Positions 11,263 to 63,780 of a DNA stretch of 64,000 nucleotides are shown in pieces. The stretch's first letter is position 1, and each line of letters starts with the position of its first letter. The position numbers were made by a program, and so were the translations under genes. The notes below the pieces were generated by a model. The model saw only the letters and a program-made list of their open reading frames with translations. It did not search any database and was not told the origin of the DNA. Source of the DNA: a virus (taxonomy: Duplodnaviria; Caudoviricetes). The stretch lies in IMG/VR virus record IMGVR_UViG_3300028410_000746; one strand, 5' to 3'.

Positions 11263-12917
11263 TGACTCACAAGACTACACGCATGTCCAAGGCCGGTCAG
11301 GTCTTCTTGCACTTCACCAGCCGCAAAGACGCTGGCTTGATCAAGCGGTCTGGCAAGCTGTGGTCGTCGAGCTATGTTGAGGGCGTCTACGCCATCGAAG
11401 AGGGGGGCGCCTACATACCCGGAGTCCAACAGGGTTCATTGGGCCGCACGAAGGTCCGCGACACGGCGGTCGTTTTCACGACGCGAGTGCCTCCCAACCA
11501 GCGCTACTCGGAGGAGACCATCTGGTATGCGGATTCGATTCCCGTGCGCGTTCTGGAGGTCCTCCCCGTGGACCGAGCCGTATCGAAGTACCTCTACGTG
11601 CCGGGGTCAGACTCGAAGCTGTACACGAAGATGGAGGAAGCCGCGCGTAAGCTCCAGGAAGACCCTGCGATCACGCGGAAGGCAAAGTCGCTTCTTGGCG
11701 TGGACTGCAAGGTCTTCCTGGACATCCCCGCCGAACTTCGAGGGGGCAAGGTGCGGGTCGTGTTGTATCTGATGATGTCGCCCGGCGCTGACCCAAACAT
11801 CCCCTCCGAGCGCGACCTTGGACGCATCCTGCAAGAGGCCTTGGAGGCGCAAGGCCTCTCGGTACAGGTCACCCCGGAAGACTTCTCCCTGGAAGATCGT
11901 ACGGGCCCGGACAGCCTGTATAACGACACGCTCATGACTGCGTTCTTCCTGGTCGAGGAGCCTTCCGGATCACGTAAGGGTACGTCCCACCAGCGCGAGC
12001 TTGCTGTACGCGTCGCATCACTGTGGAGCCATCGTGAGCGTCTCGCGGGAGCGCCCGCGCGTGCGCGTCAAGATATGGCCAAGAAGCTCCTGTCGCACCT
12101 GCTCCGTAATGCGAACTGGATTCCTTCGGCTTTCAGCGACGGCCTGGAAGCCATCGTGCCCGCTCAACAGCTTCTGAGTCTACCGGAGTGGCCTGCGAAC
12201 ACTCCCGCGCGCCTGCGAGTACAGGTGAGTACGCGTCTCCAGACGTCCTCATACAGCGCCTCAAGGATTCGCCTCAAGGTCCGTGAGGAGCCCACAGAGG
12301 AGAACATCTACCTCCTCCTGGGGACTCCGCGTGTGCGGTCCTCTTTGCTCCACGAGCTGGTGCATTACGTGGACGACATGGCGCAGCGTCTCAACCTCTC
12401 CAAGGACTACGACTCCTCGAACCGCGACACGTACTTCAACGAGGCCGGCGAAATCAGCGCCTATGTTGGCCAGCTCGCCGGGTCGGTCGGCTCTACGTCC
12501 ATGCGACGACTGCGCAAGGCCTTGCGTGGGGTCCGCAGCGGCAAGCCTCTCCACACGGTGCTGTGGGAGGTACCGGAGCTGTCAGGTTGGGGCAGCGAAT
12601 ACTTCACCGAGCTGCTCGACGTAAGCAGCATCACCGACAACCCCCTACGAAACGGGGACTACTTCAACAAGCTCGACGTCTCCCATCTCAAGCTCTTGGG
12701 CAAGCACCTCAAGCCCAAGGAGCGTCGCACCTTCCTCCGGGACCTGTACCTTTCCCTGGAGCGCATCCGACGTCGTGAGCTGATTCCGGAGGTGGCGAAG
12801 TTCCTCAAGAGCCGGCCCGAGGTCCTGGAGGTCGAGGAGGACGAGGAATACTCATGGAAGCCCTCGGGCCCCAAGACCGCCAAGGCGTGGTGGGCGTGGC
12901 TCCTCAAGCAGGCTTGA
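11262..12917 (+). CDS. Multidomain protein with an N-terminal ART-like (HxT) domain and a HExxH zincin metallopeptidase-like domain
   Basis: ATG overlaps the upstream TGA, with GGAGGGAGG RBS. Motifs LHFTS...LIKRSGKLWSS...GVY and SSLLHELVHY...YFNEAGEISAY. Confidence 0.6.
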   Translation: MTHKTTRMSKAGQVFLHFTSRKDAGLIKRSGKLWSSSYVEGVYAIEEGGAYIPGVQQGSLGRTKVRDTAVVFTTRVPPNQRYSEETIWYADSIPVRVLEVLPVDRAVSKYLYVPGSDSKLYTKMEEAARKLQEDPAITRKAKSLLGVDCKVFLDIPAELRGGKVRVVLYLMMSPGADPNIPSERDLGRILQEALEAQGLSVQVTPEDFSLEDRTGPDSLYNDTLMTAFFLVEEPSGSRKGTSHQRELAVRVASLWSHRERLAGAPARARQDMAKKLLSHLLRNANWIPSAFSDGLEAIVPAQQLLSLPEWPANTPARLRVQVSTRLQTSSYSASRIRLKVREEPTEENIYLLLGTPRVRSSLLHELVHYVDDMAQRLNLSKDYDSSNRDTYFNEAGEISAYVGQLAGSVGSTSMRRLRKALRGVRSGKPLHTVLWEVPELSGWGSEYFTELLDVSSITDNPLRNGDYFNKLDVSHLKLLGKHLKPKERRTFLRDLYLSLERIRRRELIPEVAKFLKSRPEVLEVEEDEEYSWKPSGPKTAKAWWAWLLKQA

Positions 12918-13004
12918 AGATAGTTCTTATAACGACGTGATCGTGAACGCCCCCGGCGCATGGTGCCGGGTTTACGCAGCCTCATCGCTACGACGGACTC
13001 CCAC

Positions 13005-28482: not shown

Positions 28483-28517
28483 TCCTGTACGGGTGTGTCG
28501 TTTTGTCTTACATCCTC

Positions 28518-28546
28518 TATATACCCCAAGGAGGGGGGGCCGTCAA
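28518..28546 (-). promoter_or_regulatory. Sigma70-like promoter TTGACG-N17-TATATA
   Basis: -35 at 28546-28541 and -10 at 28523-28518. Spacer and downstream UTR are nearly identical to the copy at 52.5 kb. Confidence 0.75.
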
Positions 28547-28581
28547 ATAAAGACTTCACCTGATGCCTCGGGAGAGAGGGC

Positions 28582-28721: not shown

Positions 28722-29368
28722 CCCCTCCCCGTGTACGCGGGGATGTCCCGTGCCTACCCTTGTCTACGAACGGGGCGCGGCCCCCCTCCCCGTGTACGCG
28801 GGGATGTCCCCCTTCGACGGTCACGACGACCATCGACACCAACCCCCTCCCCGTGTACGCGGGGATGTCCCCTACAACCTGGGCTCGGCTCGCTCCAGGC
28901 AAGCCCCCTCCCCGTGTACGCGGGGATGTCCCCACCCACATCACGACCTCGAAGGACTCGTTGGTCCCCTCCCCGTGTACGCGGGGATGTCCCCATGGCG
29001 TCTGTCATGGGCAACAGGATGGACTTCCCCTCCCCGTGTACGCGGGGATGTCCCCGGGTACGTGAGCGCCTTGGCGGAACCCTTCCCCGTGTACGCGGGG
29101 ATGTTCCCCGTGTACGCGGGGATGTTCCCCATTACAGGGCGGCACACCCTAGGTTCATAACCCCTTCCCCGTACACGCGGGGATGTTCCCCAGACACCCC
29201 AGATCCACCTTGGCGTCCAGACCCCTTCCCCGTACACGCGGGGATGTTCCCCTCACACCGAACGAGCGAACGCCAATGTGCCCTTCCCCGTACACGCGGG
29301 GATGTTCCCACCATGCCTTTTTGGACATGCACTGATTGTCGCTTCCCCGTATACGCGGGGATGTTCCT
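28722..29368 (+). CRISPR. Type I-E CRISPR array 1: 12 repeats (one overlapping, last degenerate) and 10 spacers
   Basis: 29-nt repeats CCCCTCCCCGTGTACGCGGGGATGTCCCC start at 28722, 28783, 28844, 28905, 28966 and 29027. Hybrid repeats at 29080 and 29101. CCCTTCCCCGTACACGCGGGGATGTTCCC at 29162, 29223 and 29281; degenerate repeat at 29340. Spacers are mostly 32 nt, plus one each of 24, 29 and 30 nt. Confidence 0.97.
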
Positions 29369-29420
29369 GTTCCTGTTCCGTCTCGTTCTCCTCTCTATTG
29401 CCGTGGCAAAGGAGCCTGAT

Positions 29421-29755: not shown

Positions 29756-32700
29756 TCAGTCCGGATCGAGCAGGAATTCCAGCTCGTCAAGCAGGGTCGT
29801 GGTCTCCTGGAGATCGTCCTGATCCCGTGCGATGCGTGTCTGCTCCACCACATCCAGACCCGTAGCACGTTCGATCTTCTGCGTCAGGCTGACGCCTCCG
29901 ATGGCGGAGAGGTCCTCGTCCTTCTCCAGACGTACGGCGACCACCTCCGGATCTTGAGCGGCGACTTGCCCCAGAGCGGTGGAGAGATCACGTCTCGCGC
30001 GGTCCAGCTTCAGGCGGGTATCTTCGGTCGCAGTGCGCGCCTCCGTGCCGAGCACCGATCCTAGCGTCTCTCCTGCGTCCAGGCGGCGGCGAATGTCCTC
30101 ACGCCCAAAGATGCCTGTGTTTGCTCGACCCACCGGCTCCAGGTTCACCGTGTCGAGACCTCCAATGACGGGATTGGGAGGGGAGGTCGCGGGCGGGGTA
30201 CGGTTCTCACCGCGTAGCTCGCGCTCTCGAATCGCACCCTGTTGGACGTCTCGCTCGTAGAGGTTGAGGAGGAAGCGGTTGAGCGCGTCGATGATCCCCG
30301 GATCACGGGGAGGGGTCAGGCCTTCCGGTAGCGTATTGACTCCGTTCTGGGCGTTGTCGTCGAGAGCTTCCGCGAAGCGGTTCACTGAATCCTGCTCGTC
30401 TTCAATGACGTCCGGGAGCCCAACCGTGTTGACGCGGTTGGAGGCTTCAAGATCATTCGCCTCGTCACCTTGAAGAATGGCGGCCTCCGTGACCATGGGC
30501 TGCTCGGGCGTGACCACCATGCCGTCAGGTATCGGGAGCAAGGACTCAGCCCAGATCCCGCGCGCGGTCTCCTCATCTCCGATGTACCCGTCAAGGTTCC
30601 AGGGCTTCTTGTTGGGCTTGTACTGTCGGGGGTACTCGGCTTGCCACTGGGCGATCTCGGCTGCGCTGGGGTTGGTCGCCAGGAAGCGGTTGTAGAGCGT
30701 CAGGCTTCCAGGACCTGCCTTCCAGAGGATGGCGATCTTGGTGGGATCGTTGCCGTGTCGGCCTTTGTACTTTTCGGCGTAGCGTAGGAAGTGCTCCAGG
30801 CTCTGGTCTGGCGCGTTCATGAAGTCGACGTTGGAGGTGTTGGTGCCGTCCCTCTTGTTGAACTCCTTCGCGTTGGTCTTGCCGATCTGAACCAACCCGA
30901 CAAACTGCGAGGGCTTCCCGTTCTTCTGCGTCCGTCTCGCATCGGCCTTACCCGAAGACTCGGTGTGGATGATCGCGAGCACCAACTCATCGGGATAGGT
31001 CGCTTCGGAGTAGCCCAGCTTTTCGCGCGCCGCGCGGATGTTGGGGCGCCAACGGGCCACGTTCGAGTTGTACTTGAAGACGCGACCTCGCGACGACTTT
31101 CTCACCGTCTTGTTGTTGACCGTGTACGAGTCCGAAGAGAGTGGGCTGGGCGCAGCGGTCGCCGGCACGGAGGAGGAAGCCCCCTGTGCGTTGGAGAACT
31201 GGAGCTGGGCGGAGAGCACGCGCGCGGCGAGCGTGGGGTCGGCCGAGATGTTGGGAGGTGCAAGCTCTGCGAGTCGTCGCCCGTAGTTGTTGGGGTCCAG
31301 CTTGAGCGCCTTGCCTCCCAGGTCTGCCTCATAGGCCGTGGCGAGGTTGTCGGAGATCTCATTTTCGGCGTTGGGCGTCGTCCTCCCTGGCTGCCCCAGG
31401 TCGTCGGGTGCGAGGTTGAGGAGCAGCTCCACGGCCGTGTTCAAGGGCGTCTGGTCAAAGCGGTAGCCTTGAGGGGTCGCCAGGACACGGCGCCCGTACT
31501 CATAGGCTCCGATCACCTCATAGCCTCGCTCATCCGAGACCGGGAACACCACCGCGTTGACCGTGGCGGTCTCGGTGGTTCCTTCTGAGGTGGCCGTGAT
31601 CTGTAGCTTGGGGTCGGACTCGATGTGAGTCACCGGACCTCGTGAGCGGTTGTTGGCCTCATCGGAGACGTAAGGGGTCTCCCGGTTCGGGTCAATGAGG
31701 TAGACGTAGCGGTTGTCTGTCGTGTTGCCAAACTGTGATCGCAGGTCGACCAAGTTACGCAGGCGGCGGTCCGAGTCAGTGGAGTCGTCCTCAAACGTGG
31801 GCACCACGTCACCGAACCTCTTGAAGTCCTTTTCGGGGAGGTAGGTCATCACCACGTTGCGGTCACCCAGGGGCCGCCCGTTGGGGTCTGTGGGTCGGGC
31901 CCCGATGTTTCTCGGGATGTCACCGGGGAGCGCCAGATCACCGGGCTTGGGCTCGGCCGCCTCGTCACGCCACCGCTCAAAGGCCCCGTAGAACTTCTGT
32001 CTGCGCGCGGAGAGGGTCAGGGACGTGGTACAGCGTGATCCATACCCGAAGCTGTGTGAGATGCCCTCCACGTAGTAGTACGCGTCCTTGCCCTCCACAT
32101 AGACCGGGTACCCCAGGCGAAGCTCGGGTCGAAACGGGATCGTGACCGTGCCGCTGTTGATGCGCGCGTTCTGCTGATCCAGGATGTCGACGAGGTGGTA
32201 GAAGAGCGCCTTGGGCCCTCCGTTCTCCTTGGACCCAATGAACTCGGAGCTGAACGCTCCTGGACGCCATCCGTACTTCTGGACGAGCCTGTAGTCGACG
32301 TACGTAGCCTTGGTCTGTGCCAGGGAGGAGAGCCCGACCTCGACGTTCTGTGTGTAGCGTCCCGTGGCCTCCACGAAGGTCGCTTCCGGAGGGTTCTCCG
32401 AAAAGTTCCAGGAGATCACGTCAACGTCTCGAATCCAACTCACGGGGAAATTCAGCCGGGTGTCCATGTTGAAGAACGGAGGCTTGAAGATGATCTCCCC
32501 CGTGACGTCCATGTAGAACTCGTAGTTGATCGCCTCCTTGGTCTGCAAGGCGAGGTTGAGCTTGTTCTCGAACTCACTGTTCTCGATCTCTACCGCACCG
32601 AGCTGACTCAGCTTCTGGCTGAAGGGGGCGATGGCGCTCACGTCGAAGAAGTCCTGCTTGAAGGGCTCGTAGTCCTTGAGCTTGGTAGCCTTGGCGGACC

Positions 32701-33484
32701 CCTTGCGCTGGCGAAGGAAGAAGTCTCGGTTCTCGCCCGAGAGCACGCTCGCGAGCTGGCCACCCTGGAGGACGTTCCCGGAGGGGCCATACATCTTGAT
32801 GTTCTGCGTGATCCGACCCCACTTGGCGCTCCAGTAGGCCATCATCCTCTTGGTGTCCGCTCCCGAGATCGGCTCGGTACGGGCTTCGCGGTTTGGGACC
32901 GACTGATTACGCACGTTCATCGAGTCCCCATACACGTAGCGTGAGAGGCTGTAGATGATGTCGAAGGCGTTCATGCCCGTGAACGTGTGTCCTCGCAGGT
33001 TGACCTGTTGGGTCTGGTCCTTCAAGGTCGCCAGATACGACGGGTTGATGTTGATCTGCGAGACCTGCCACCAGTACAGGATGTCCGAACAGCTCAAGCT
33101 GACCGTCTGCTCGCCGGCCGAGTAGCTCTCCTGCAAGCTCGTGACGACGCCCCAGAAGATCGGGTAGTACCGTGGCGATCCGCCCACCGAGAAGTGACCC
33201 TTGGCGTAGATCTGGACCTCCATCATCGTGGTCAACGTGAGCTGACCCCCCACATAGATGTCACCCAGGTAATGTGCCGGGATGTGCAGGTCAATGGAGG
33301 CGCTGCCGGGCACCGAGTTGACCCCCAGGTTGACCGAGATCGTGTTGATCAACGGCTGCAAAGGCACGCGTCGGTTCGGGTTGGCTCCGCTTGGGAGGCT
33401 CAGCTCTCCGTTGATGTAGACCAGACAGTCTGGCGCCGTGGTGACGACGGGGCGGCGGTTTGGCTTGTAGGTCCCTTGGTACAC
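29756..33484 (-). CDS. Baseplate hub (gp27/gp44/VgrG-like) protein fused to an SLT lytic transglycosylase domain
   Basis: Hub-like N-terminus (SASIDL, YYPIFWGVVTSLQESY, TVSLSCSDIL, EFYMDVTGEIIFKPPFFN, GTVTIPFRPELRLGYPVY, YYVEGISHSF). SLT motifs LAIIHTESSG, VGLVQI and KAGPG at about 31075-30700. Confidence 0.8.
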   Translation of the reverse strand: MYQGTYKPNRRPVVTTAPDCLVYINGELSLPSGANPNRRVPLQPLINTISVNLGVNSVPGSASIDLHIPAHYLGDIYVGGQLTLTTMMEVQIYAKGHFSVGGSPRYYPIFWGVVTSLQESYSAGEQTVSLSCSDILYWWQVSQININPSYLATLKDQTQQVNLRGHTFTGMNAFDIIYSLSRYVYGDSMNVRNQSVPNREARTEPISGADTKRMMAYWSAKWGRITQNIKMYGPSGNVLQGGQLASVLSGENRDFFLRQRKGSAKATKLKDYEPFKQDFFDVSAIAPFSQKLSQLGAVEIENSEFENKLNLALQTKEAINYEFYMDVTGEIIFKPPFFNMDTRLNFPVSWIRDVDVISWNFSENPPEATFVEATGRYTQNVEVGLSSLAQTKATYVDYRLVQKYGWRPGAFSSEFIGSKENGGPKALFYHLVDILDQQNARINSGTVTIPFRPELRLGYPVYVEGKDAYYYVEGISHSFGYGSRCTTSLTLSARRQKFYGAFERWRDEAAEPKPGDLALPGDIPRNIGARPTDPNGRPLGDRNVVMTYLPEKDFKRFGDVVPTFEDDSTDSDRRLRNLVDLRSQFGNTTDNRYVYLIDPNRETPYVSDEANNRSRGPVTHIESDPKLQITATSEGTTETATVNAVVFPVSDERGYEVIGAYEYGRRVLATPQGYRFDQTPLNTAVELLLNLAPDDLGQPGRTTPNAENEISDNLATAYEADLGGKALKLDPNNYGRRLAELAPPNISADPTLAARVLSAQLQFSNAQGASSSVPATAAPSPLSSDSYTVNNKTVRKSSRGRVFKYNSNVARWRPNIRAAREKLGYSEATYPDELVLAIIHTESSGKADARRTQKNGKPSQFVGLVQIGKTNAKEFNKRDGTNTSNVDFMNAPDQSLEHFLRYAEKYKGRHGNDPTKIAILWKAGPGSLTLYNRFLATNPSAAEIAQWQAEYPRQYKPNKKPWNLDGYIGDEETARGIWAESLLPIPDGMVVTPEQPMVTEAAILQGDEANDLEASNRVNTVGLPDVIEDEQDSVNRFAEALDDNAQNGVNTLPEGLTPPRDPGIIDALNRFLLNLYERDVQQGAIRERELRGENRTPPATSPPNPVIGGLDTVNLEPVGRANTGIFGREDIRRRLDAGETLGSVLGTEARTATEDTRLKLDRARRDLSTALGQVAAQDPEVVAVRLEKDEDLSAIGGVSLTQKIERATGLDVVEQTRIARDQDDLQETTTLLDELEFLLDPD

Positions 33485-33542
33485 GCAGCACTCCTTGACG
33501 TGGGGTCCTTCACCCTGCGCACAAAAAGGTTAGGCATGGCGC

Positions 33543-33572
33543 TTGACACTCACGTTGCAGTTGCAGTATACC
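33543..33572 (+). promoter_or_regulatory. Candidate promoter TTGACA-N18-TATACC upstream of the orphan CRISPR leader
   Basis: Perfect -35 but imperfect -10. Confidence 0.45.
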
Positions 33573-33608
33573 TTGAGACGTCAAGTGGGCGCGGTACCAC
33601 AGAGTAAG

Positions 33609-33703
33609 AGTTGGTAAAGTAAAACGGCGAACCTCATGCTAACAGGATTCCCCTTATGAATCAAGGAGTTAGGTACACTTCCGAAGGCTTGAACATTTGA
33701 AGA
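33609..33703 (+). promoter_or_regulatory. Orphan CRISPR leader, homologous to the array 2 leader
   Basis: 33668-33703 is identical (36 nt) to the reverse complement of 54491-54526, and TTGGTAAAGTAAAACGG is also shared. AATCAAGGAGTTA (33659-33671) is a perfect IHF consensus (WATCAANNNNTTR). Confidence 0.85.
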
Positions 33704-33732
33704 GTGTTCCCCGCGCGAGCGGGGAAGTTCCT
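33704..33732 (+). CRISPR. Solitary type I-E repeat with no array
   Basis: GTGTTCCCCGCGCGAGCGGGGAAGTTCCT with intact CCCCGC/GCGGGG stem. No further repeat at +61 nt. Confidence 0.85.
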
Positions 33733-33772
33733 ACCTTCTACTACGACCACACCTTCTGTGGGGGATGAGACC

Positions 33773-33970
33773 ATGAAGATCAAGACACGGATTCAGCGAG
33801 ACGACAAGCCCACGGTCATCATCCGAATCGTCCGCACGGAAGATGGGACGGTCACGTGGCAGAGCAAGATAGCACGCACGGGTCGAATCATCGGCACCGG
33901 TACGTGCGATACGGTCGAAGATGCGCTCCTGGAATCGTCCAAGGGGATGTTCGAGGTCCCTGATTCATGA
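33773..33970 (+). CDS. Small hypothetical protein (65 aa)
   Basis: ATG at 33773 with GGGGA upstream, 40 nt after the solitary repeat. Confidence 0.6.
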   Translation: MKIKTRIQRDDKPTVIIRIVRTEDGTVTWQSKIARTGRIIGTGTCDTVEDALLESSKGMFEVPDS

Positions 33971-34845
33971 GCTACTACAAGACCAAAGGTCGCTGCACGC
34001 TCCAGGTACAGAAGCACGGCGGCGTGTGGATGGCCGAGGTCGACGTCTCTCAGGAGCATGGTCCGATGGCCGAGCTGTGCTGTGCTCCGGCGACGTCCTA
34101 CACTCAGGCCGTCAAGATGGCCCACGCGGTGGAGAAGCAAGTAGAGGAGGGCTCACTCTTGCGCCTCCCCGAACAGGCGATTGAAGAGCACTACACCTCT
34201 TATCCCAAGCTGTACTATACGCGGTGGTGCGCCCTCTCTTGGATTCTGGGCTATTACGGTATGGATTGGCTCGACGGACAGAAGGTCTCAACCTGCGACC
34301 TTCACCCGGACGGGACGCAAGCGCTGGACCTCTACTCCGAAATCTCTGACGAGCTGGAGGGTCTTGAGCGGCGGGCCTTCGCGCCGTTGAAACACGATGA
34401 GCCTCTTGAAGACTATCTCTCCAGGTACTACAAGGAGGAACAGTTTCAAGCCTATAAGGCCGAGTCCAAGGCGTTCTTTGAGCGGCCTTACCCCCTCGAT
34501 GATACCGGCTACGCGGTTCATGACGCACATCTGCGAGACCTCGAAGTCCCTGACAACATCCACCCCAAGTGGTTGGAAGCCGTCCGTGAGCTGCTCATCA
34601 TCTGCGGCACGAGGTGCACGGAGACCTCGGCTCGGCTGTGGGCCGACGAACAGGGCAAGACACTCGAAGCTCGTTTCCCTACACGCTTCGAGCCCTTGAA
34701 CCTGGACATGACCTCTCACCCCACTCGGCCCGTGTTTTCGAGCTTCAGCTTGACGCAGAGGAGCGCGGAGAAGACGGCGAAGCTCTTGACCGCCAAAGAG
34801 CGTGAGCGTCTCCTTTGTGCCTATCCCAAGAGGTTCTCAGTATGA
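33967..34845 (+). CDS. Hypothetical protein
   Basis: 292 aa; ATGA overlap with the previous gene. Confidence 0.7.
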   Translation: MSYYKTKGRCTLQVQKHGGVWMAEVDVSQEHGPMAELCCAPATSYTQAVKMAHAVEKQVEEGSLLRLPEQAIEEHYTSYPKLYYTRWCALSWILGYYGMDWLDGQKVSTCDLHPDGTQALDLYSEISDELEGLERRAFAPLKHDEPLEDYLSRYYKEEQFQAYKAESKAFFERPYPLDDTGYAVHDAHLRDLEVPDNIHPKWLEAVRELLIICGTRCTETSARLWADEQGKTLEARFPTRFEPLNLDMTSHPTRPVFSSFSLTQRSAEKTAKLLTAKERERLLCAYPKRFSV

Positions 34846-35102
34846 ACGAGTTGACCTACCTTAGAAGCGTTCTTGGAATCCTGGGAGCCTTTATGGCGGC
34901 CATGTTCTTCACGAGCTTCCTGATGTTGGCCTTGCCGGCTGAAGAGGACCTGACGGGGTGGCACTTTGTGTTCTACTTCTTCTCCTGGACCTGCATCTTC
35001 ATTGCGCGTGGTGCACGGGGAGTGGTCCTGTCACATCTGGTCGAGCTGGAAGCGGCCATGAAAGACCAGGGCGTCGATGCACCGGAAGACCTCGTGATGT
35101 GA
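34842..35102 (+). CDS. Small membrane protein with two TM helices
   Basis: ATGA overlap. Hydrophobic segments VLGILGAFMAAMFFTSFLMLAL and WHFVFYFFSWTCIFI. Confidence 0.6.
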   Translation: MNELTYLRSVLGILGAFMAAMFFTSFLMLALPAEEDLTGWHFVFYFFSWTCIFIARGARGVVLSHLVELEAAMKDQGVDAPEDLVM

Positions 35103-35153
35103 GATTGTCTTTGTTCGCCGTGGTTGAAGAGACCTCAACCGTGGAGTCGTGCT

Positions 35154-37307
35154 GTGACCAGACGCTATGGAACCCCCCTCCCTCTCGGCCAGAAGCCCCT
35201 CAAGACCAAGATGGTGGGAGGCAAGGGCGCGTTGCGCTTCTCGTTGCGCATCGGTGAGATCACGCGGGTAGACTACGAGAGCATGGTCTGTGACATCTCC
35301 TGGATACAGGGTCGGTATCCGCCCTCTCTTGATGTCCCCTTGACCTCGGCCTACTGGTCGGCGCGTAGCTTCCTTGGAGTGATGCCAGAAGAGGGCGCGC
35401 TCGCTGTATGCGGCTTCAGCGCCGTGCACGAGAGTCAGGGCACCCGTCCCTATGTCCTGGCGTACATCCCCAATGGATACCGAACCGCCCTCGGGTTCCA
35501 ACCGTTCGGGGTCGCCCCTCGTAATGCTCCCGAACTCAACGCCCCTCTTGACGACATCCAACGTCAGCTCCAGGGTCAGTATGGCCCTACTCGCTACAAG
35601 ATGCGCAAGCTCTACGGTGGTGACGCCTACATGGCCTCCACGCATGGCGCCGAGCTTCTGGTGAACCGGGACGTCCGGCTCCTGGATGCTTCAGGTGGAG
35701 AGCTGTGGCTGCGAGGGGAAGACAGCTCACTGACCACGACCTCCCTGGACCATTACTCGACCACGGCAGCCGGCCGGTCCAGGACGGGTCGCATCTCTCG
35801 CGGAGCCCTGACTCTTCCTGCCGACGTCGAGAGTCGCCTCACGCCAGGGACCGAGCTGTTCGAGTACCTCCTGTCAGCCGGACTCGTCTTTGAGGACGGC
35901 GCGCTGGCCCCCGACATCAACCGCCTCCCTTATCTGGTGCTGGAGTCCGGGGAGCGTCTGACTCTGATCACGGACAACGGGGTCGACCCTTCCCTCCCAT
36001 CCTCGCGCGCCTTCACGGAGTCTCGTCACGAGATTCAGGAGTTCGATGCGGGCATCCTGGGACATCCCGATCACTACGGGTTTGACTCGGACCTCCTCGC
36101 CCCTTCGCCCAACTACGCCCCCTTCATTGAGCGGGTCCACGGCACCGTCGTGGGCAACGACCCCTACACCCTGCGAGGAAGGGCCCAATATGGCAGCCTC
36201 CTGCGTCCCTCGGTGTTCTCCAGCCCCTCAGCCACGACAGGCTCTCCAGGCCTGGAGGCGGTCGCCAACGACGCCGAGGAGACTCAGAAGTCCATGGTCG
36301 CTGCCAGCCTCTACCGTATGCGACGCCCTGATGGTCTCGGAGAGCTGTTCTTTGCTCATGACAAGGAAGGCCATGTCTACCTCTCTATCCCCGGCTCGAC
36401 CTCAAAGCCGGCCAGCCTTGGGGGCAACCGCAGCGTCGAAGCCGACATCAAGGGGTCCATCAAGGCCGTGCTCGGAGCCAACACGAACGATACGCAGTCC
36501 CTCGACCTCTTCGCGCGTGGTGGGTTCCTGTGGTCCCTGGGGACCCTCGCGTCGTCGCGACGCTCTCTTGATCTGACAGCTCGGGGAGGCATCAACATCA
36601 AGGTCGAGCGGCCCGACGTCAACGGGTACGCGATGCAATCTACCCTCAACGGAGACGTAGGGCTCTCCGCGCGCGGTTCGATGGGCGTGGCCCTGACGGG
36701 AGATCTTCTCGAAGACATCCAGGGGTTGCGCGAGACCAACGCGGAAGCGGTGAGCGTGAACGTTGGCGTGGGAGGCAAGACGGAGACGATTCAAGGTGAT
36801 CGCCAGTCGGTCGTCACAGGCAACGAGCAGCTCAAGATTGGACAGGGGCGTGACGTCACGATCACGGGACCCTCTCCTCAGAGTCCCTACGCAGACCGTC
36901 TGGAGATCCTCGCCGGGAGCCGGCTTGAGACCTTCGCAGGACCGGCCACCGACACGATCCAGTACCAGTCCGCCGCCACGAGGTCTATCGAAGCCACGGG
37001 GGCCCTCAACGCCACATGGTCCTCGGCCGGCGTGGGCACATACAGCTTCTCCTCCGCGTCAGGCTCGTTCGCCGTCAACGTCGGCACAGGTGCGATCTCG
37101 TTGAACGCGGGCGGCGCGGTCTCGATCAACTCGGGAGCTGCGATCACGATGGCGGCCTCCAACATCAACCTCACCGGCTCGGTTGGCCTGGGTACAGGTG
37201 CGGCGGCGGTCAACGCGGTCGTGGGCGGCGTCCCCGGTCCAAGCCCCTCCATCGACCCCTTGACGGGTATCCCCGCCACAGGTAACCCTCTCGTGCGTAC
37301 GGCTTGA
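35154..37307 (+). CDS. Baseplate central spike protein (gp5/gpV-like)
   Basis: N-terminal OB-fold-like LRIGEITRVDYESMVCDISW...GVMPEEGALAVCGF. C-terminal beta-helix-like repeats (ETIQGDRQSVVTGNEQLKIGQGRDVTITG; SLNAGGAVSINSGAAITMAASNINL). GTG at 35154 has a GGAG RBS; ATG at 35211 is an alternative start. Confidence 0.7.
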   Translation: MTRRYGTPLPLGQKPLKTKMVGGKGALRFSLRIGEITRVDYESMVCDISWIQGRYPPSLDVPLTSAYWSARSFLGVMPEEGALAVCGFSAVHESQGTRPYVLAYIPNGYRTALGFQPFGVAPRNAPELNAPLDDIQRQLQGQYGPTRYKMRKLYGGDAYMASTHGAELLVNRDVRLLDASGGELWLRGEDSSLTTTSLDHYSTTAAGRSRTGRISRGALTLPADVESRLTPGTELFEYLLSAGLVFEDGALAPDINRLPYLVLESGERLTLITDNGVDPSLPSSRAFTESRHEIQEFDAGILGHPDHYGFDSDLLAPSPNYAPFIERVHGTVVGNDPYTLRGRAQYGSLLRPSVFSSPSATTGSPGLEAVANDAEETQKSMVAASLYRMRRPDGLGELFFAHDKEGHVYLSIPGSTSKPASLGGNRSVEADIKGSIKAVLGANTNDTQSLDLFARGGFLWSLGTLASSRRSLDLTARGGINIKVERPDVNGYAMQSTLNGDVGLSARGSMGVALTGDLLEDIQGLRETNAEAVSVNVGVGGKTETIQGDRQSVVTGNEQLKIGQGRDVTITGPSPQSPYADRLEILAGSRLETFAGPATDTIQYQSAATRSIEATGALNATWSSAGVGTYSFSSASGSFAVNVGTGAISLNAGGAVSINSGAAITMAASNINLTGSVGLGTGAAAVNAVVGGVPGPSPSIDPLTGIPATGNPLVRTA

Positions 37308-37340
37308 CTCTAATCCACCTCTTGGGATACACTCTCGGCT

Positions 37341-37619
37341 ATGAACACATCCGAAGTCGAAAAGTTCTGCGAGGACACCAAGGCCTCTGGCTTCTATGTC
37401 CACCGACCACACCCGACGATGATCATCGCCGCGCGGAAACAGAAGCTCTTATTTGGGGTGCCCATCCTCTATGGCGCTCGCTTCGCCGTGGTGGTCAACC
37501 CGGAAGGCGGATGGCTCATGGAGCATGTCCTCGGTCACCCGAGTGGTGACTTCATGTCTCGGGAGATGGATACCCTGGAGGAAGTTCTCGCGGTCGCGCG
37601 TCAGCTCCAGTCCGACTGA
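37341..37619 (+). CDS. Hypothetical protein
   Basis: 92-aa ORF filling the gap after the spike gene. Confidence 0.55.
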   Translation: MNTSEVEKFCEDTKASGFYVHRPHPTMIIAARKQKLLFGVPILYGARFAVVVNPEGGWLMEHVLGHPSGDFMSREMDTLEEVLAVARQLQSD

Positions 37620-37629
37620 ACAATATTCT

Positions 37630-37658
37630 TTTACGGTACGGTCTTCTTGTGGTATAGA
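37630..37658 (+). promoter_or_regulatory. Sigma70-like promoter TTTACG-N17-TATAGA
   Basis: Spacer ends TGTGG as in other copies; 30 nt upstream of the sspB-like ATG. Confidence 0.7.
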
Positions 37659-37687
37659 GGTCGTACACACCAATATGGAGGTACTCG

Positions 37688-38116
37688 ATGAGTAATGAGA
37701 AGAAAGACAACGTGGTGAAGGTGCAGTTCGGAAAGATCGCGTCGCGAGACGACGGCTTCTTCAAGGACCTCATGTCCTTGGAGGCACCCGAGCAGGATTA
37801 CGACAAGCCGAGCAAGCAGCGGGTCTGCGAGGATTTCCTCGCGAGCGGCATCGTGCATGTGGCGCTGATCATGAGCGCGCCGGGGGTCGTGGTCCCGGAG
37901 CACCTGGGAAATACGGGCATCGGCGTCCTGACCTTCTCGTACGCTTACGGGCTGGTCGACTTCGAGGTGGACGGCGAGGGCTTGAGAGCCTCGCTGTTGT
38001 TCTCGGGTCGCAAGGTCTTCTGTGACATCCCCTGGAGCGCCGTGGTGAACCTGAGCAGCAAGGATCAAAGGCTCTCCGTGAACTTCGTCGAGGAGTTTCC
38101 GAATGTCCTCAACTGA
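37688..38116 (+). CDS. sspB: ClpXP adaptor SspB-like protein
   Basis: LASGIVHV...APGVVVPEHL...LTFSYAYG..DFEVD.EGLRASLLFSG....CDIPWSAV matches the SspB fold signature. GGAGG RBS. Confidence 0.75.
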   Translation: MSNEKKDNVVKVQFGKIASRDDGFFKDLMSLEAPEQDYDKPSKQRVCEDFLASGIVHVALIMSAPGVVVPEHLGNTGIGVLTFSYAYGLVDFEVDGEGLRASLLFSGRKVFCDIPWSAVVNLSSKDQRLSVNFVEEFPNVLN

Positions 38117-38510
38117 AGCTGAACAGCTCGAAGCCATCTCCTCGGAGATGGCTTCTCTCATCGTTGCGGCGTGCTCCAAGCTCCACACGGAAGCGCACAC
38201 GCCTCATGGCGTCACCCTGCGGACTCAAGGGGAGCTGACAAGGGCTACCCTTCGCAAGGATGCCTGCAACGCTCCCCACCCCACACCCGCTCAGAAGCTG
38301 CTGCGGGCGGCGGAGCTGCTCTACTACCAGACTTGCCAGGAGATCCAGGAGGCCGAGAAACTCGTAGGAGAGACGCCAGAAGCGGTCGAGATGCTGGACG
38401 TTCGCTGGGCGCGTCTCTACCAGCTCATGCGAGAGGCGGACAAGGCTCGTGCGGTGGGGGCCGACGCGGTGGCGTTGGAAAACCGAGTCAACGACCTTGG
38501 CACATCTTGA
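38103..38510 (+). CDS. Hypothetical helical protein
   Basis: 135 aa, GAGGAG RBS, overlaps the end of the sspB-like gene. Confidence 0.6.
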   Translation: MSSTEAEQLEAISSEMASLIVAACSKLHTEAHTPHGVTLRTQGELTRATLRKDACNAPHPTPAQKLLRAAELLYYQTCQEIQEAEKLVGETPEAVEMLDVRWARLYQLMREADKARAVGADAVALENRVNDLGTS

Positions 38511-52491: not shown

Positions 52492-52532
52492 GTCGTCGTC
52501 TCCTGCGGTGTGTCGTTTCGTCTTACACACCC

Positions 52533-52561
52533 TATATACCACAAGGAGGGGGGGTCGTAAA
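52533..52561 (-). promoter_or_regulatory. Sigma70-like promoter TTTACG-N17-TATATA
   Basis: Near-copy of the 28.5-kb promoter and UTR. Confidence 0.75.
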
Positions 52562-52563
52562 AA

Positions 52564-54034: not shown

Positions 54035-54490
54035 TGGGACATCCCCGCGTGCGCGGGGAACACGCTCCCCTTCGATACAGAGATCTTCTTTCTACCGGGA
54101 CATCCCCGCGCACGCGGGGAACACGGGTAGAACAAGAAGATGTATGAGAGGGGATCCGGGACATCCCCGCGCACGCGGGGAACACCGGACGAGCATGGGG
54201 AGACGTATTCGCCCTACCGGGACATCCCCGCGCACGCGGGGAACACTTGAAGCTGGAAGGATGCACGAGATGTGCGTGCGGGACATCCCCGCGCACGCGG
54301 GGAACACACAGGTGTGATCACAAGAGCATGTCGCCTCATCGGGACATCCCCGCGCACGCGGGGAACACGTCAAAGCTGGTCACCTTTGGAGCGTGAACGG
54401 CGGGACATCCCCGCGCACGCGGGGAACACCATGACACCGACACACCCGCACTTGGTGCATCCGGGACATCCCCGCGCACGCGGGGAACAC
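54035..54490 (-). CRISPR. Type I-E CRISPR array 2: 8 repeats and 7 spacers of 32 nt
   Basis: Repeat GTGTTCCCCGCGTGCGCGGGGATGTCCCG (minus strand) with a 61-nt period; plus-strand starts at 54096, 54157, 54218, 54279, 54340, 54401 and 54462. Terminal variant at 54035-54063. Confidence 0.98.
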
Positions 54491-54600
54491 TCTTCAAATG
54501 TTCAAGCCTTCGGAAGTGTACCTAACCCCCTGTATTCGCTCAGGAATTCTGTTGGCATGGGGTACACCGTTTTACTTTACCAAATCGTACCCTGCGGTAC
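54491..54600 (-). promoter_or_regulatory. CRISPR array 2 leader
   Basis: AT-richer segment between the cas8e-cas11 stop and the first repeat, ending ...TTGAAGA|GTGTT. Candidate TTGTAC-N17-TAAAGT promoter. Confidence 0.8.
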
Positions 54601-54609
54601 AAGCCTGAA

Positions 54610-56817
54610 TCAGGAGGCCTTCTTGGTGGGGGCGCGGTAGTAGGTGCGCGTCCACTCCATCTGCGTCTGAGAGCCCCAGGTGAGGAGGCTCAGGATGAGG
54701 TCGTTGGCGTCGGCACCCTGACCCTCAATGCGTCCGAGGACGTTGCGGAGCTGGCGCCAGTGGCCGTTCAAGGTGCCTCCCGAACACAGGCGCTCGAACG
54801 AGCGCTCCTTGATGTCACGAGACTGCGCGAGGACGCGCGCGACGGGGCGGTTGCCCTTGAAGCCGGTGGGCTTGAGGCCCGCGAGCAGGACCGCCAGGAG
54901 GAACACGCGCTCCTGCAACTCGGGGGCGTTCTCACCAAGGTTACGCTCCACCACCTTCTCCAGGGCCTTCTCCAGCAGGATGGCGGGGCGCATGTAGCGT
55001 ACGTCCTGGAGGTTCTTGGCGCGAGAGAGCGCGACGCGGCCGGAGCCCTTGTCGTGGTGGAGGTTGCGCCACCACTTGTGGACCACGGAGAGGATCTCAT
55101 CCTTGTGGGCGTATACGATGTTGTTCATGGGGTTCTTCTCTCTCTTGGTGGAGGTGCCGCAGAGTTTGAGGAGCTGCTTTTCGAGCCCGGCTCGTTCCCT
55201 CACGGCGGATGTGATGGTGCGGGTGTTCATGCGCGATTTGCGAGTGACACGGCCTCCAACGAGGGAGTCGAAGATCGTGAGCGCGGTGGTCGCGAGGAGG
55301 CGCTTGTAGGGCGTATAGACCATCTCCTCAAGCTCCTCCCGGTTGGTCGTGAGCTTGACCTTGGCGAGCGCGTCGTATGCAGCCTGTTCGGTGTGTGACC
55401 ACAGCTCGGAGTTGTTCCGGCCTCCCAGGCAGGCGACCTTCGCGCGGAGCACCTTATCCACCTCGGACGTGAGCTTGACCAGCGCCCCGAAGGTGTCCTC
55501 ATCACGCAGAGCCTGTGAGCCCTCGAAGATGAAGATGTACTTCTCGAAGAAGCTCACCGTCTTGCCCGCAAACATGTTGAATCCGAAGACACGCAGCGGG
55601 GGAAGCCCTCCCCATACCTCATCCCAATGCTCCGCGACCTCATCGTACAGGAAGGCCTTGCGCTTGGTGTGGGTGATGATTGGGGGCGTGTGGAGGGTCT
55701 CGGAGTAGGCGTGGGAACCCAGAACGTTCCACGTGCGCCTGTTGGTGACGGTCTGCACAGCGCGGACATCTTTCACATCTTTGGGGGTCCACTTGCCGTT
55801 GACGCCCATCGTCTTGAGGTTCTTGAGGGTGGTGGCGTTGTTGGGGAGCTGCCAGACACCCGACATGGGGATGCACTGACGAGACCCCGGCAGACCTTCC
55901 CACTTCTCGGACTGCGCTGTGTAGCGCTGCCGGTTGCCCCAGGGCTGCGCATCCACGTAGTCCAGGAGCCCGTCCTCATCCGGCTCCGGCAGGACCCACT
56001 CACGCGTGAGGTGCCAGAACGCGGTCAAGGGGTGGTAGTCCAGGTCGTGAGCGCGCCACCCCTCGATCTGACTCTCTTCGACCCAGGGGAACTCGAACTC
56101 GGGGACGGTCTCCTGTCCCCACAGAGCGTTGATTTCAGGTTCAGTGAGGATGTTGTTGAGGACCTCCTCGCAGAGGTCGCGGCCGCTGAAGACGTACCAC
56201 AGGCTGCCGTTGTTTCCGTAGCCGGGTCGCGATGTGCCACGTGAGAACTTGTTCCCCGCGTCCATGCGAAACTCGGCCGCCAGGATGAACGCGATGGCGT
56301 CCCCAGGCGTCAGACGCTGCCGGGGATCACGGCCCAAGTCCATGCTGAAGGGGAGCGGCCGCGTGACCTTCTCCGAGTCGAAGTCGAAGCCTGAGGAGGA
56401 GGACCCCAGCGCGTGCGTGTTGAAGCGGTAGCGGCCTATCTCAGTGGCGCACGGCAGGTCGGACTTCTTGATCTTTCTGATATCTTCGGTCCACTCGCGC
56501 AAGGCGGGCGTGGCCTGGAACGCACGGTACCCCGGCCCGTAGACGTCGAAGAAGTCTTCCTCACTCAGAAAGCGCTTCTTGAAGTCGAGGTTCTCGCCGC
56601 GCGTCAGGTGCATCTCGACCCACTCGTCGTCGTCCTTGGGCGCGGCCACCGTCTGGACCAGTGCCTGAATGAAGTGTCGGACGCCCTCATTCATTACGGA
56701 GTGGGGGTAGTCGAGCTTGAGGCCGGGTTCCGTGAACTCGTGCGGTCGGATGAGCTTGGACTTTCCCGTGGCGTCCTGAACCCGAATCCAAGCGTCGGTC
56801 ATGAGATTGAGTGACAT
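54610..56817 (-). CDS. cas8e-cas11: Type I-E Cas8e (Cse1/CasA) fused in frame to Cas11 (Cse2/CasB)
   Basis: N-terminus MSLNLMTDAWIRV, LTPGDAIAFIL...GRDLCEEVLNNI and YHPLTAF are Cse1-like. The last 172 aa from Met564 (KWWRNL...GRVALSRA...ERSFERL...WTRTYY) are Cse2-like. No stop separates them. Confidence 0.85.
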   Translation of the reverse strand: MSLNLMTDAWIRVQDATGKSKLIRPHEFTEPGLKLDYPHSVMNEGVRHFIQALVQTVAAPKDDDEWVEMHLTRGENLDFKKRFLSEEDFFDVYGPGYRAFQATPALREWTEDIRKIKKSDLPCATEIGRYRFNTHALGSSSSGFDFDSEKVTRPLPFSMDLGRDPRQRLTPGDAIAFILAAEFRMDAGNKFSRGTSRPGYGNNGSLWYVFSGRDLCEEVLNNILTEPEINALWGQETVPEFEFPWVEESQIEGWRAHDLDYHPLTAFWHLTREWVLPEPDEDGLLDYVDAQPWGNRQRYTAQSEKWEGLPGSRQCIPMSGVWQLPNNATTLKNLKTMGVNGKWTPKDVKDVRAVQTVTNRRTWNVLGSHAYSETLHTPPIITHTKRKAFLYDEVAEHWDEVWGGLPPLRVFGFNMFAGKTVSFFEKYIFIFEGSQALRDEDTFGALVKLTSEVDKVLRAKVACLGGRNNSELWSHTEQAAYDALAKVKLTTNREELEEMVYTPYKRLLATTALTIFDSLVGGRVTRKSRMNTRTITSAVRERAGLEKQLLKLCGTSTKREKNPMNNIVYAHKDEILSVVHKWWRNLHHDKGSGRVALSRAKNLQDVRYMRPAILLEKALEKVVERNLGENAPELQERVFLLAVLLAGLKPTGFKGNRPVARVLAQSRDIKERSFERLCSGGTLNGHWRQLRNVLGRIEGQGADANDLILSLLTWGSQTQMEWTRTYYRAPTKKAS

Positions 56818-56858
56818 GGTGTGTCTCGTAGGTAGAGAGGGGAGGTGGGGAGGCGCGC

Positions 56859-57569
56859 TCAGAGCGTGTGCATGTGGGCGCTAAACTCGCGCCGCACCTT
56901 GTGGGACCCTTGACGGGTCAGATCGTGGGGCACATCACGACGGAAGGTTGACCGTCGGCTACCTTCGAGGCCAAAGTCTTCATCCCAGAACACCTGTCCC
57001 GGCACCACGGTTCGGTCAAGGTAGTAGAAGCTACTCGCCACGGCCTCCTCCAGACACTCACGCGGCGTGGTGGACTGTAGGACCCGTGGATTGAGAGGCG
57101 CGCTTGGCGGACAGCTCTTGCGGCCAAAGTAGATAGGCCAGTAGGGACGCTGGAGCGCCGCGATGATACCGTCGACGTCCTCGTCGGGTACCTGGAGCAG
57201 GACCACCCAGGTCTGGTCCTGGAGGTAGTACCTCTCCGAGGTCAGGGAGTCCGTCTTGGGGCTTTGCGGGTCCAGCTCCTCCTGGCGCGTGGTCACGTAG
57301 CCCTTGAAGCAGCGGATGAGGTGGTAGTCTCGAAGCGGCGGGGGGCTCACCGAGGCTCCCTCAAGCTGGAGCTGGACGCACGCCATCTTGATGGTGTTTG
57401 CCAGCCTCTGGTGGTGAGCCTGATCGTCACGCTCGATGCCTTGCGCGCACGCGATCATCCCGAGTATGGCCGATTTCGTCGGGCTCTGGTCCGTCGTGCG
57501 CAGCGCCGCGCGCGCCGCGTTTCCGAAGCTCATGAGAGGGGCTCGAATGTCGCAGGCGAGTGTTTGCAT
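56859..57569 (-). CDS. cas5e: Type I-E Cas5 (CasD)
   Basis: APLMSFG...RTTDQSPTKSAILGMIACAQGIER, RYYLQD and IYFGRKSCPPSAP. AAGGAGG RBS before ATG at 57569. Confidence 0.95.
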   Translation of the reverse strand: MQTLACDIRAPLMSFGNAARAALRTTDQSPTKSAILGMIACAQGIERDDQAHHQRLANTIKMACVQLQLEGASVSPPPLRDYHLIRCFKGYVTTRQEELDPQSPKTDSLTSERYYLQDQTWVVLLQVPDEDVDGIIAALQRPYWPIYFGRKSCPPSAPLNPRVLQSTTPRECLEEAVASSFYYLDRTVVPGQVFWDEDFGLEGSRRSTFRRDVPHDLTRQGSHKVRREFSAHMHTL

Positions 57570-57633
57570 AGGTACCTCCTTTGTGGTACTCAAAAGATAC
57601 CACAAGGTTCAAGATGGGGTCAAGTGGTTCGAT

Positions 57634-58365
57634 TCAGAGGGCCACAAGGGCGGCGGCGGGCTTGAGAAGGACAAGGCCGGCCCCGAAGGCCTTGCCCCGA
57701 CCGATGCCGTTGCGCCACAGGGTCACGAACTTCTCGGGGTCGGTGACCTCGACGCGCGCCTCAAGCTGCACGAAGTCCATCGTAATGGGGTTGCGCCGTC
57801 CCACGCCCTGCTCGGAGAACACGGGGGTCAAGGCGGTGACCCTGTGCAGCTTGAAGCCGCCGTCCTCCGAGCGCCTCTCAAGCCACTCGAAGAGGAGGGC
57901 GTCGAGGTCGCGAGGCGTCTCCCCATTCGCTTCGCACATGAGCTTCTCGTAGGTCTGGAGACCCAAACGCTTGGAGCGCCCCTTGGGCACGATCCGCTCG
58001 TCACGGGTACAGACGGTGGCGTTGACCCATGCTCGGAGGTCGAGGCCGGCACCCATGTGCATCGTGGGCTGCTCGATCGTCTTGGTCAGAAGCTTCACGT
58101 AGCCGTGAGGGTCCGAGGGGATCTCCGTGGACTGGATGTAGAAGGAGGAGCCCTTGAAGGGGGTGAACATGAAGGGTCGGTCTTTGCGGTCCTCCACCGG
58201 GTCGAAGAGGTCCCAGACGAACTGGTGTGCGGTGTAGATGCCCTCGGACGTGTAGCGGGAGAGCTGCTCGATTCCCTTGGCCGTGAAGGTGGCGCGTGAG
58301 ATGTAGAGAGGGGTCGAGGTGGGGGGTGTGGTGGTGTTGAACGGGATGTTGACTTGCGTGCTCAT
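57634..58365 (-). CDS. cas6e: Type I-E Cas6e (Cse3/CasE)
   Basis: AHQFVWDLF and the C-terminal G-loop GIGRGKAFGAGL. GGAG RBS before ATG at 58365. Confidence 0.95.
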   Translation of the reverse strand: MSTQVNIPFNTTTPPTSTPLYISRATFTAKGIEQLSRYTSEGIYTAHQFVWDLFDPVEDRKDRPFMFTPFKGSSFYIQSTEIPSDPHGYVKLLTKTIEQPTMHMGAGLDLRAWVNATVCTRDERIVPKGRSKRLGLQTYEKLMCEANGETPRDLDALLFEWLERRSEDGGFKLHRVTALTPVFSEQGVGRRNPITMDFVQLEARVEVTDPEKFVTLWRNGIGRGKAFGAGLVLLKPAAALVAL

Positions 58366-58441
58366 TGATAACTCCAAAAATACCCCCGCACGAGGCGGGG
58401 AGGTTGAGAGGGGACCCCCGCGTGAGCGGGGAAAGGGGCAC

Positions 58442-59788: not shown

Positions 59789-59858
59789 GTCTGGACTCTC
59801 ACTACAGTGGGTAAAAGGACCTTCGAGCTTTCAGAGGCTTCGTGCCTCGACGGAAACG

Positions 59859-59915
59859 ACACTAACTCCGATGTTAGAGCAGTGTCAAGCGGTTTCTTTA
59901 ACGCTTGACACTGCT
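59859..59915 (-). promoter_or_regulatory. Candidate Cascade operon promoter TTGACA-N18-TAGTGT overlapping a 14-bp perfect inverted repeat
   Basis: Arms AGCAGTGTCAAGCG (59878-59891) and CGCTTGACACTGCT (59902-59915). -35 at 59888-59883 and -10 at 59864-59859. Confidence 0.75.
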
Positions 59916-59935
59916 GTGCGGTATGAAAAAAAGAC

Positions 59936-63197: not shown

Positions 63198-63200
63198 ATC

Positions 63201-63247
63201 TCAACCTCCTGTGGTCTGTATATACCACAGGAGGTTGAAGCTGTAAA
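63201..63247 (-). promoter_or_regulatory. Candidate cas3 operon promoter TTTACA-N17-TATATA inside a 15-bp perfect inverted repeat
   Basis: Arms TCAACCTCCTGTGGT (63201-63215) and ACCACAGGAGGTTGA (63224-63238). -35 at 63247-63242 and -10 at 63224-63219. Confidence 0.8.
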
Positions 63248-63751: not shown

Positions 63752-63780
63752 GGGGACATCCCCGCGTGTACGGGGAAGAG
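63752..63780 (-). CRISPR. Solitary type I-E repeat upstream of the array 3 promoter
   Basis: CTCTTCCCCGTACACGCGGGGATGTCCCC on the minus strand, preceded by TGGCACAGA, the same 9 nt that end the array 3 leader. Confidence 0.85.

Follow-up and report, generated by a model that had tools for sequence, protein, structure and literature searches.

Genomic context of the leader-repeat unit

The window analysed here, a stretch of 64,000 nucleotides, is part of a 373,477-bp lake-water metagenome contig (ENA ERZ27315555, k141_181878), and window positions equal the positions in that record minus 242,090. Most genes of the window could not be assigned to a family, and the recognisable ones are tail- or baseplate-like. 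Between a divergent gene on the minus strand, encoding a 1242-aa protein with an SLT domain (29756–33484), and a seven-gene operon on the plus strand (33773–38510) lies a 139-bp segment (33594–33732), which aligns without gaps to the array-2 leader and first array-2 repeat of the same phage and is their paralogue. This segment is a real, non-chance, spacer-less CRISPR leader-repeat unit.

Approximately 20 kb from the solo repeat, the same genome carries the cas operon (54610–62566, minus strand). In this rearranged type I-E interference module, cas3 (59936–62566), cas7 (58442–59788), cas6e (57634–58365), cas5 (56859–57605) and a cse1-cse2 fusion (54610–56817) are followed by the array-2 leader (54491–54600) and by the eight repeats of array 2 (54035–54490), all in minus orientation. 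The fusion is a single 735-aa ORF directly before the array-2 leader, and a word-indexed search of 5.8 billion proteins gave no detectable homologue of its product. The 243-aa product of cas6e is assigned to Pfam CRISPR_assoc and is expected to bind and cut the solo repeat. It gives PDB matches to Cse3/CasE, the G-rich loop included, and one of its histidines aligns with His20 of E. coli CasE. No cas1 or cas2 was found among the called genes with precomputed Pfam assignments at window positions 8058–72566, the part of the 373-kb phage genome that this search covered. For spacer uptake, a source of Cas1-Cas2 in the host or elsewhere in the genome is assumed.

The leader copy and its single repeat

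The leader copy (33594–33703, plus strand, 110 nt) is identical to its type A reference paralogue, the array-2 leader (54491–54600, minus strand), at 90 of 110 positions without gaps. Identity is distributed in blocks of 13/17, 17/17 (33611–33627), 24/40 and 36/36 (33668–33703), so that the leader duplication with 36 identical nucleotides proposed in the preliminary description is borne out. Outside the unit, the match to the array-2 flanks drops to chance level (6/34 upstream and 3/32 downstream), and for this reason we place the start of the unit 15 nt further upstream than had been described before. The fully identical blocks of 17 and 36 nt each occur at only these two places in the window, while shuffled sequences give an expectation of 0.00–0.01.

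The 17-nt block contains TGGTAAAGT, an extended −10-like motif (33612–33620) that is found only in the two type A leaders. The IHF consensus WATCAANNNNTTR has exactly one match in the 64-kb window (whole-window shuffle mean 0.27); it is located inside the leader copy at 33659–33671, which confirms the perfect IHF site reported earlier. This site overlaps the upstream edge of the 36-nt block by 4 nt and is 32 nt away from the repeat. In E. coli the IHF site lies closer to the repeat, and this counts against a role of the unit as a spacer acceptor. The leader-repeat junction, with TTTGAAGA on the leader side and GTGTTCCCCGCG on the repeat side, is the same as in array 2. Among 185,579 species genomes, its only other exact match stands at the head of a type I-E array in a Methanoregula MAG. 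The identical blocks are those with known leader roles, namely the one with the extended −10-like motif and the 36 nt adjoining the repeat. With two to four leader copies to judge from, their identity may be due to selection or to recent gene conversion.

The single type I-E repeat (33704–33732, plus strand) has a 6-bp stem (33709–14/33719–24), a GCGA loop and the handle AAGTTCCT. It agrees with the array-2 repeat at 24 of 29 positions. The differences fall at 33716, 33718, 33726, 33729 and 33732, and all 12 stem positions are conserved, in line with the intact stem and GCGA loop described for it. The hairpin of the solo repeat has a folding energy of −17.1 kcal/mol (z −3.6) vs. −14.4 kcal/mol for an array-2 repeat. 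With a position weight matrix (PWM) built from 17 distinct repeats of the four arrays, the solo repeat scores 23.8 and the best chance match 11.9. There is no second repeat downstream: PWM scores are −23 or lower over 33733–33774 and strongly negative across the next 70 nt. Cas6e is predicted to cut between 33724 and 33725 and to leave the 8-nt tag AAGTTCCT on the downstream RNA. Cutting at this position is likely because a phage Cas6e with the catalytic histidine is present.

The changes in the 3′ handle to which the preliminary description drew attention are indeed there, but for the most part they are not unusual; the handle was over-read, since in this genome a terminal repeat, or one with no spacer, would be expected to show two of the three changes. 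Comparison of the four arrays revealed that repeats of one array can differ in their final base. This base derives from the PAM of the adjoining spacer in type I-E (PMC3338789), and a repeat with no adjoining spacer should therefore deviate at that position. Working repeats have either T or C at handle position 5. Moreover, 11 of the last 12 nt of the solo repeat agree with the terminal repeat of array 1. That repeat has TGTTCCT at its end and GTTCCT runs after it, as does repeat 7 of array 4. The only handle change unique to the solo repeat is T>A at position 2 (33726), which is absent from the working repeats here. Through this change one more U-A pair forms below the predicted cut site, which might impair Cas6e or Cascade function.

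Promoter, 5′ untranslated region and downstream operon

A sigma-70-like promoter candidate (CTTGACA, 18 nt, TATACC) was identified by pattern scan at 33542–33572 on the plus strand. A stricter promoter scan did not flag it because its −10 element ends in C. The predicted start is near 33580, approximately 14 nt before the leader homology begins. Candidates of the same class, CTTGAC[AG]-N17-18-TAnnn[TC], are also found before arrays 1, 3 and 4, before the second solo repeat and before cas7. The candidate lies approximately 130 nt upstream of the solo repeat, with the leader in between, and the first ORF starts 40 nt downstream of the repeat.

These 40 nt form a unique trailer (33733–33772, plus strand) with a weak hairpin (33747–33761) and a Shine-Dalgarno-like GGGGGA (33760–33765), which ends 7 nt upstream of the ATG at 33773. 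Neither a second repeat nor a terminator or promoter was found in the trailer, and no terminator-like site lies between the promoter candidate and the ORFs. A small hairpin and a start codon had been noted within 40 nt of the repeat, and both are present; however, at about −6 kcal/mol the hairpin is weak and no better than shuffled sequences. The weak hairpin together with GGGATGAGACC was also considered as a degenerate second repeat, and this candidate was ruled out by the PWM scan and by its spacing.

The operon downstream begins with ORFs of 65 aa (33773–33970), 292 aa (33967–34845) and 86 aa (34842–35102), all on the plus strand; neighbours among the three overlap by 4 nt, and the 86-aa product has two hydrophobic segments. 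None of them has a Pfam, PHROG, PADLOC or NCBIfam match. They are followed by a 717-aa ORF (35154–37307, plus strand), a gp5-like baseplate spike candidate with an Atlas feature match to Gp5/Phage_base_V clusters and three weak PHROG matches to baseplate hub proteins. The last three genes of the operon are small ORFs, and the gene calls come from two assemblies. An Atlas feature search with the 292-aa product points weakly to tyrosine recombinases. Assignment of this ORF as an integrase was rejected: the Atlas feature scores of 0.92–0.93 are based on few shared features, and Pfam, PHROGs, NCBIfam and PADLOC gave no support (E up to 5). Residues near 205–225 resemble what we take to be recombinase box I, with no HMM support, and no homologue of the ORF was found among 5.8 billion proteins.

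Because a promoter candidate lies upstream, no terminator intervenes and 40 nt are too short for another promoter, we infer that the leader and repeat form the 5′ untranslated region (UTR) of the operon. From this geometry the unit appears to be transcribed ahead of all seven genes. An RNA switch in the UTR was rejected, as the full UTR folds no better than shuffled sequences (z +0.7). Folding also gave no sequestration of the ribosome-binding site before 33773.

Other arrays and repeat units in the phage

The leader-repeat unit at 33594–33732 is not the only one of its kind. Just upstream of the promoter and leader of array 3 there is another spacer-less unit (63752–63925, minus strand), which belongs to the other leader family. 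It consists of a promoter candidate (63891–63921), a type B leader that has diverged and has TGGCACAGA at its end, and a single repeat whose handle is canonical. The presence of this second leader with a single repeat shows that spacer-less units are recurrent in this phage.

In arrays 1 and 3, repeat variants follow one another stepwise from the terminal to the leader end. Such ordered variants are the pattern of polarised growth, and adaptation has therefore acted on the arrays of this lineage. The terminal repeats of both arrays (29344–29380, plus strand; 63245–63270, minus strand) are followed by a T-rich tract and resemble intrinsic terminators; the solo repeat at 33704 was not flagged in this way. 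At arrays 1, 3 and 4, an ORF starts approximately 40–52 nt after a repeat. No homology was detected between the ORFs after array 1 and those after the leader-repeat unit. Array 4, with 10 repeats, lies beyond the window end (positions 6257–7000 of contig L006, equal to 65567–66310 in window numbering).

The 76-nt gap between cas7 and cas6e contains two hairpins with the repeat stem CCCCGC/GCGGGG (58384–58436, minus strand), 31 nt apart. The first has a PWM score of 21.3, and the second, which has a T run behind it, was flagged as terminator-like. These hairpins may serve Cas6e autoregulation or attenuation.

Population forms and relatives of the site

On Logan contig L002, which comes from an independent assembly of the source run, the leader end, a single repeat and the operon follow one another at normal genome depth, and the one-repeat form is the majority form in that run. 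Pieces identical to the window were recovered from three other lake runs. Contigs from the four lake runs revealed no spacer-bearing form or variant at this site. One contig with two similar repeats and a 33-nt spacer was considered and rejected as a cross-alignment, as it is not from this site and is absent from the window. Summed contig depth reaches approximately 8x the single-copy level over 33668–33703 and approximately 3.7x over 33630–33640, values that are not to be read as copy numbers. Two Logan contigs break inside type A leaders. Together, the summed depth and the contig break points indicate that further type A leader copies are present in the sample.

Relatives of the site were found neither by blastn of a phage collection, nor in IMG/VR with the 292-aa protein or the leader junction, nor in JGI metagenomes with the leader core, nor in an index of look-alike sequences. 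The closest relative of the phage Cas7, with 33% identity, is encoded on contig L010 (Logan, SRR14610206), where the order of cas3 and cas7 is the same. This contig (positions 1–3000) has dispersed mini-arrays just before ORFs, with repeats approximately 40–52 nt before an ORF start at three places. One unit on it consists of a repeat, 22 nt resembling the type A leader end, a terminal-type repeat, a ribosome-binding site and an ATG, in this order. Two unrelated ORFs of L010 are preceded by an identical 19-nt core of the terminal-type repeat and by an RBS-ATG segment identical at 17 of 18 positions. A mini-array after its cas7 takes the place of the hairpins in the cas7-cas6e gap. The small ORFs after the repeats show no homology between this phage and L010. 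A promoter of the form CTTGACG-N18-TAACCT was also seen on this contig, approximately 30 nt before a four-repeat array.

Proposed interpretation of the unit as a spacer-less CRISPR locus

The unit fits best with an empty array, collapsed or never filled, that has features for Cas1-Cas2/IHF integration and for Cas6e cutting; we hold this reading with about even credence. Among the possibilities raised in the preliminary description, an empty array ready for acquisition agrees best with the anatomy of the unit, in which a complete leader containing an IHF site meets one terminal-type repeat at a conserved junction. At the sequence level, it shares with a minimal type I-E array a homologous leader, a repeat with the family palindrome in register, an IHF site and the junction. 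The spacers between repeats that define a CRISPR array are absent. The type I-E system of E. coli can acquire spacers with no more than 60 bp of leader and one repeat, the repeat-adjacent 20 bp being essential (PMC3384332), and it requires IHF for integration according to work cited in PMC10120712.

The single repeat of this type A leader-repeat module would be the first and the terminal repeat at once. The unit may have originated when a leader-repeat module was duplicated, or when recombination between repeats removed every spacer. What type I-E adaptation uses has been retained, namely a leader of more than 60 bp, the IHF site, the conserved junction and both halves of the repeat palindrome, and the hairpin needed by Cas6e is still there as well. 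Were Cas1-Cas2 provided in trans, whether by the host or by another part of the genome, a first spacer could be taken up here. The unit would be passively transcribed and probably cut by the phage Cas6e at 33724/33725, which would yield a leader fragment with a 3′ hairpin and an mRNA starting with the 8-nt tag. A Cas6e cleavage site in the operon mRNA, likewise raised in the preliminary description, is thus predicted from the geometry and from a Cas6e with a conserved catalytic histidine, but nothing indicates that the operon is controlled by it. We see no evidence that the unit was built as a regulator.

The position of the repeat in front of the operon could also mean that the unit is a dedicated Cas6e-dependent processing element of the 5′ UTR, by which baseplate expression is tied to the phage CRISPR proteins. 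In one variant, the Cas6e cut would remove the 145-nt leader and give the operon mRNA a defined 5′-OH end; in another, Cas5 and Cas7 bound to the 8-nt tag would cover the ribosome-binding site 28–33 nt downstream. The 40 nt before the ATG leave no room for a promoter and no terminator is present, and repeats stand at a comparable distance from ORFs at arrays 1, 3 and 4 and at the three places in L010. The repeat-like hairpins in the cas7-cas6e gap, matched by the L010 mini-array, and a stem that has stayed intact while the loop and tag changed point in the same direction. Yet such a role makes a full leader with an IHF site unnecessary, the whole UTR is no more structured than shuffled sequences and its ribosome-binding site is not sequestered. 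Proximity to ORFs also means little, as in dense phage genomes ORFs lie close to anything. Cas6e (CasE) stays on the upstream product and not on the mRNA, which likewise counts against the proposal, and we regard it as rather unlikely. Extended to the whole lineage, it would have leader-repeat cassettes in operon 5′ UTRs, with Cas6e and possibly Cascade subunits maturing or gating the mRNAs; the unit would then be a switch or insulator of the baseplate operon, and the hairpins before cas6e a similar autoregulatory loop. This broader form appears unlikely to us. Co-transcription of arrays and ORFs is not general, because arrays 1 and 3 end in repeats that resemble terminators.

A solitary intergenic repeat in a virus, here downstream of a promoter candidate, also recalls the situation of viral solitary repeat units (PMC10651486), and an unrelated IMG/VR contig, L005, likewise has a solitary type I-E repeat. 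The solo repeat might then act as a Racr-like RNA anti-CRISPR that sequesters the Cas6e and Cas7 of a type I-E system in the host, or modulates the system of the phage itself. The decoy suggested earlier is, however, poorly supported by what surrounds the repeat. The cognate cas operon, Cascade included, is on the same genome 20 kb away, and the unit adds little decoy capacity, as it is one of at least 37 transcribable repeats in 72 kb. Its 110-nt leader and its direct run into ORFs show that it is not a small RNA gene, and there is no acr-like match nearby. The repeat is truly solitary and intergenic, but, with the cas operon on its own genome, it is not free from cas association. Altogether we find this explanation very unlikely. 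A regulatory guide of the CreA/crlRNA type, in which the tag and the downstream sequence would direct Cascade to a partly matching promoter for repression, is highly improbable. Although such elements are common in type I-E loci (PMC10120712) and the distal repeat of such mini-arrays can degrade beyond recognition, no second repeat or repeat-like hairpin occurs at a usable distance, the weak hairpin being only 14 nt after the tag. Regulatory mini-arrays typically have no leader, whereas this unit has one, and the tag deviates at an otherwise invariant position. No exact seed match for the pseudo-spacer was found on either strand of 72.5 kb; within the same sequence, no site with a single seed mismatch exceeds 16/32 overall, and the best ungapped match (20/32) equals that of shuffled sequences. 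The guide put forward in the preliminary description thus found no support. Finally, the frame of the first ORF is open from GTG 33704 and in frame with ATG 33773, so the repeat might simply be coding (88 aa). This is scarcely credible: GGGGGA precedes ATG 33773, whereas GTG 33704 has no ribosome-binding site, the gene calls of both assemblies use 33773, and homology to a non-coding leader and repeat explains the sequence fully.

Comparison with known systems

The spacer-less array that we favour has an experimental counterpart in the minimal type I-E locus engineered in E. coli, in which only one repeat follows the leader (Yosef et al. 2012, PMC3384332), and natural loci reduced to one repeat are known from Escherichia and Salmonella (Touchon and Rocha 2010, PMC2886076). 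As in the minimal locus, there is no spacer in the phage unit, its leader is of the type found at a working array, the palindrome of its repeat is intact, and both an IHF-type site and the conserved junction are present. It differs from it in being on a phage that encodes Cascade-Cas3 with no visible cas1-cas2, in being embedded as the predicted 5′ UTR of a structural operon, and in being one of several dispersed leader-repeat units with two leader families in one genome.

Racr candidates and viral solitary repeat units have been described as unassociated with cas genes and as matched to the system of the host (Camara-Wilpert et al. 2023, PMC10651486). The unit shares with them a solitary intergenic viral repeat, here downstream of a promoter candidate, and an intact Cas6-type hairpin. 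Unlike Racrs, it has the full 110-nt leader, its genome also encodes the cognate Cas proteins, it does not form a small RNA gene of its own, and no acr neighbourhood was detected at it. With the crRNA-like mini-arrays and isolated repeats (Shmakov et al. 2023, PMC10120712) it has in common a repeat-like sequence outside the main type I arrays and near a gene start. In contrast to CreA-type guides, it has neither a distal repeat nor a partial target, it does have a leader, and it lies 20 kb from the cas operon.

Very large phages that have no adaptation genes (reviewed in PMC11656645) resemble this phage, which exceeds 200 kb and, over the part examined, combines an interference module and several small arrays with a lack of adaptation genes. 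Among the forms described for such phages in that review are mini-arrays and single repeat units; in the passages considered here, a spacer-less unit with a complete leader paralogue is not one of them. The unit is different from known minimal type I-E arrays and from viral solitary repeats while related to both.

The unit bears on how phage arrays gain spacers when cas1-cas2 are missing and on the role that solitary repeats play on viruses. Its complete leader with adaptation signals argues that at least some viral solitary repeats are empty acceptors or collapsed arrays and not decoys. The unit also provides a clean 240-bp one-repeat substrate for uptake of spacers in trans by the Cas1-Cas2/IHF of a host type I-E system, and the same substrate is suited to asking whether the phage Cas6e processes the mRNA of structural genes. 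Should the mRNA-processing reading be true, the unit would exemplify in nature the processing of mRNAs by Cas6, so far known mainly as a device of synthetic biology.

Additional features of the arrays

Several further features were seen at the arrays. Array 4 is composite, with seven repeats, a GTTCCT microsatellite like the array-1 trailer and three older repeats. Its stem, CCCCAC/GTGGGG, has a compensatory change relative to CCCCGC/GCGGGG, and its leader contains three tandem 13-nt units. In array 1, a 21-nt partial duplication of the repeat gives two overlapping copies (29080–29129, plus strand), and the older units are irregular, with lengths of 58–59 nt. A 56-nt element is duplicated at 88% identity (28492–28547 and 52507–52562, plus strand); it comprises an TATATACC box and a long AAGGAGGGGGGG tract, and one copy is upstream of array 1.

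On the minus strand, a hairpin with a 13-bp stem (63199–63235) stands directly before ATG 63196. Since its 3′ arm contains the AGGAGG ribosome-binding site, translation of the ORF after array 3 may be gated. The solitary type I-E-like repeat of contig L005 (IMG/VR UViG 3300024051_000003), an unrelated viral contig of 92.7 kb, is intergenic and is located at positions 12911–12939.
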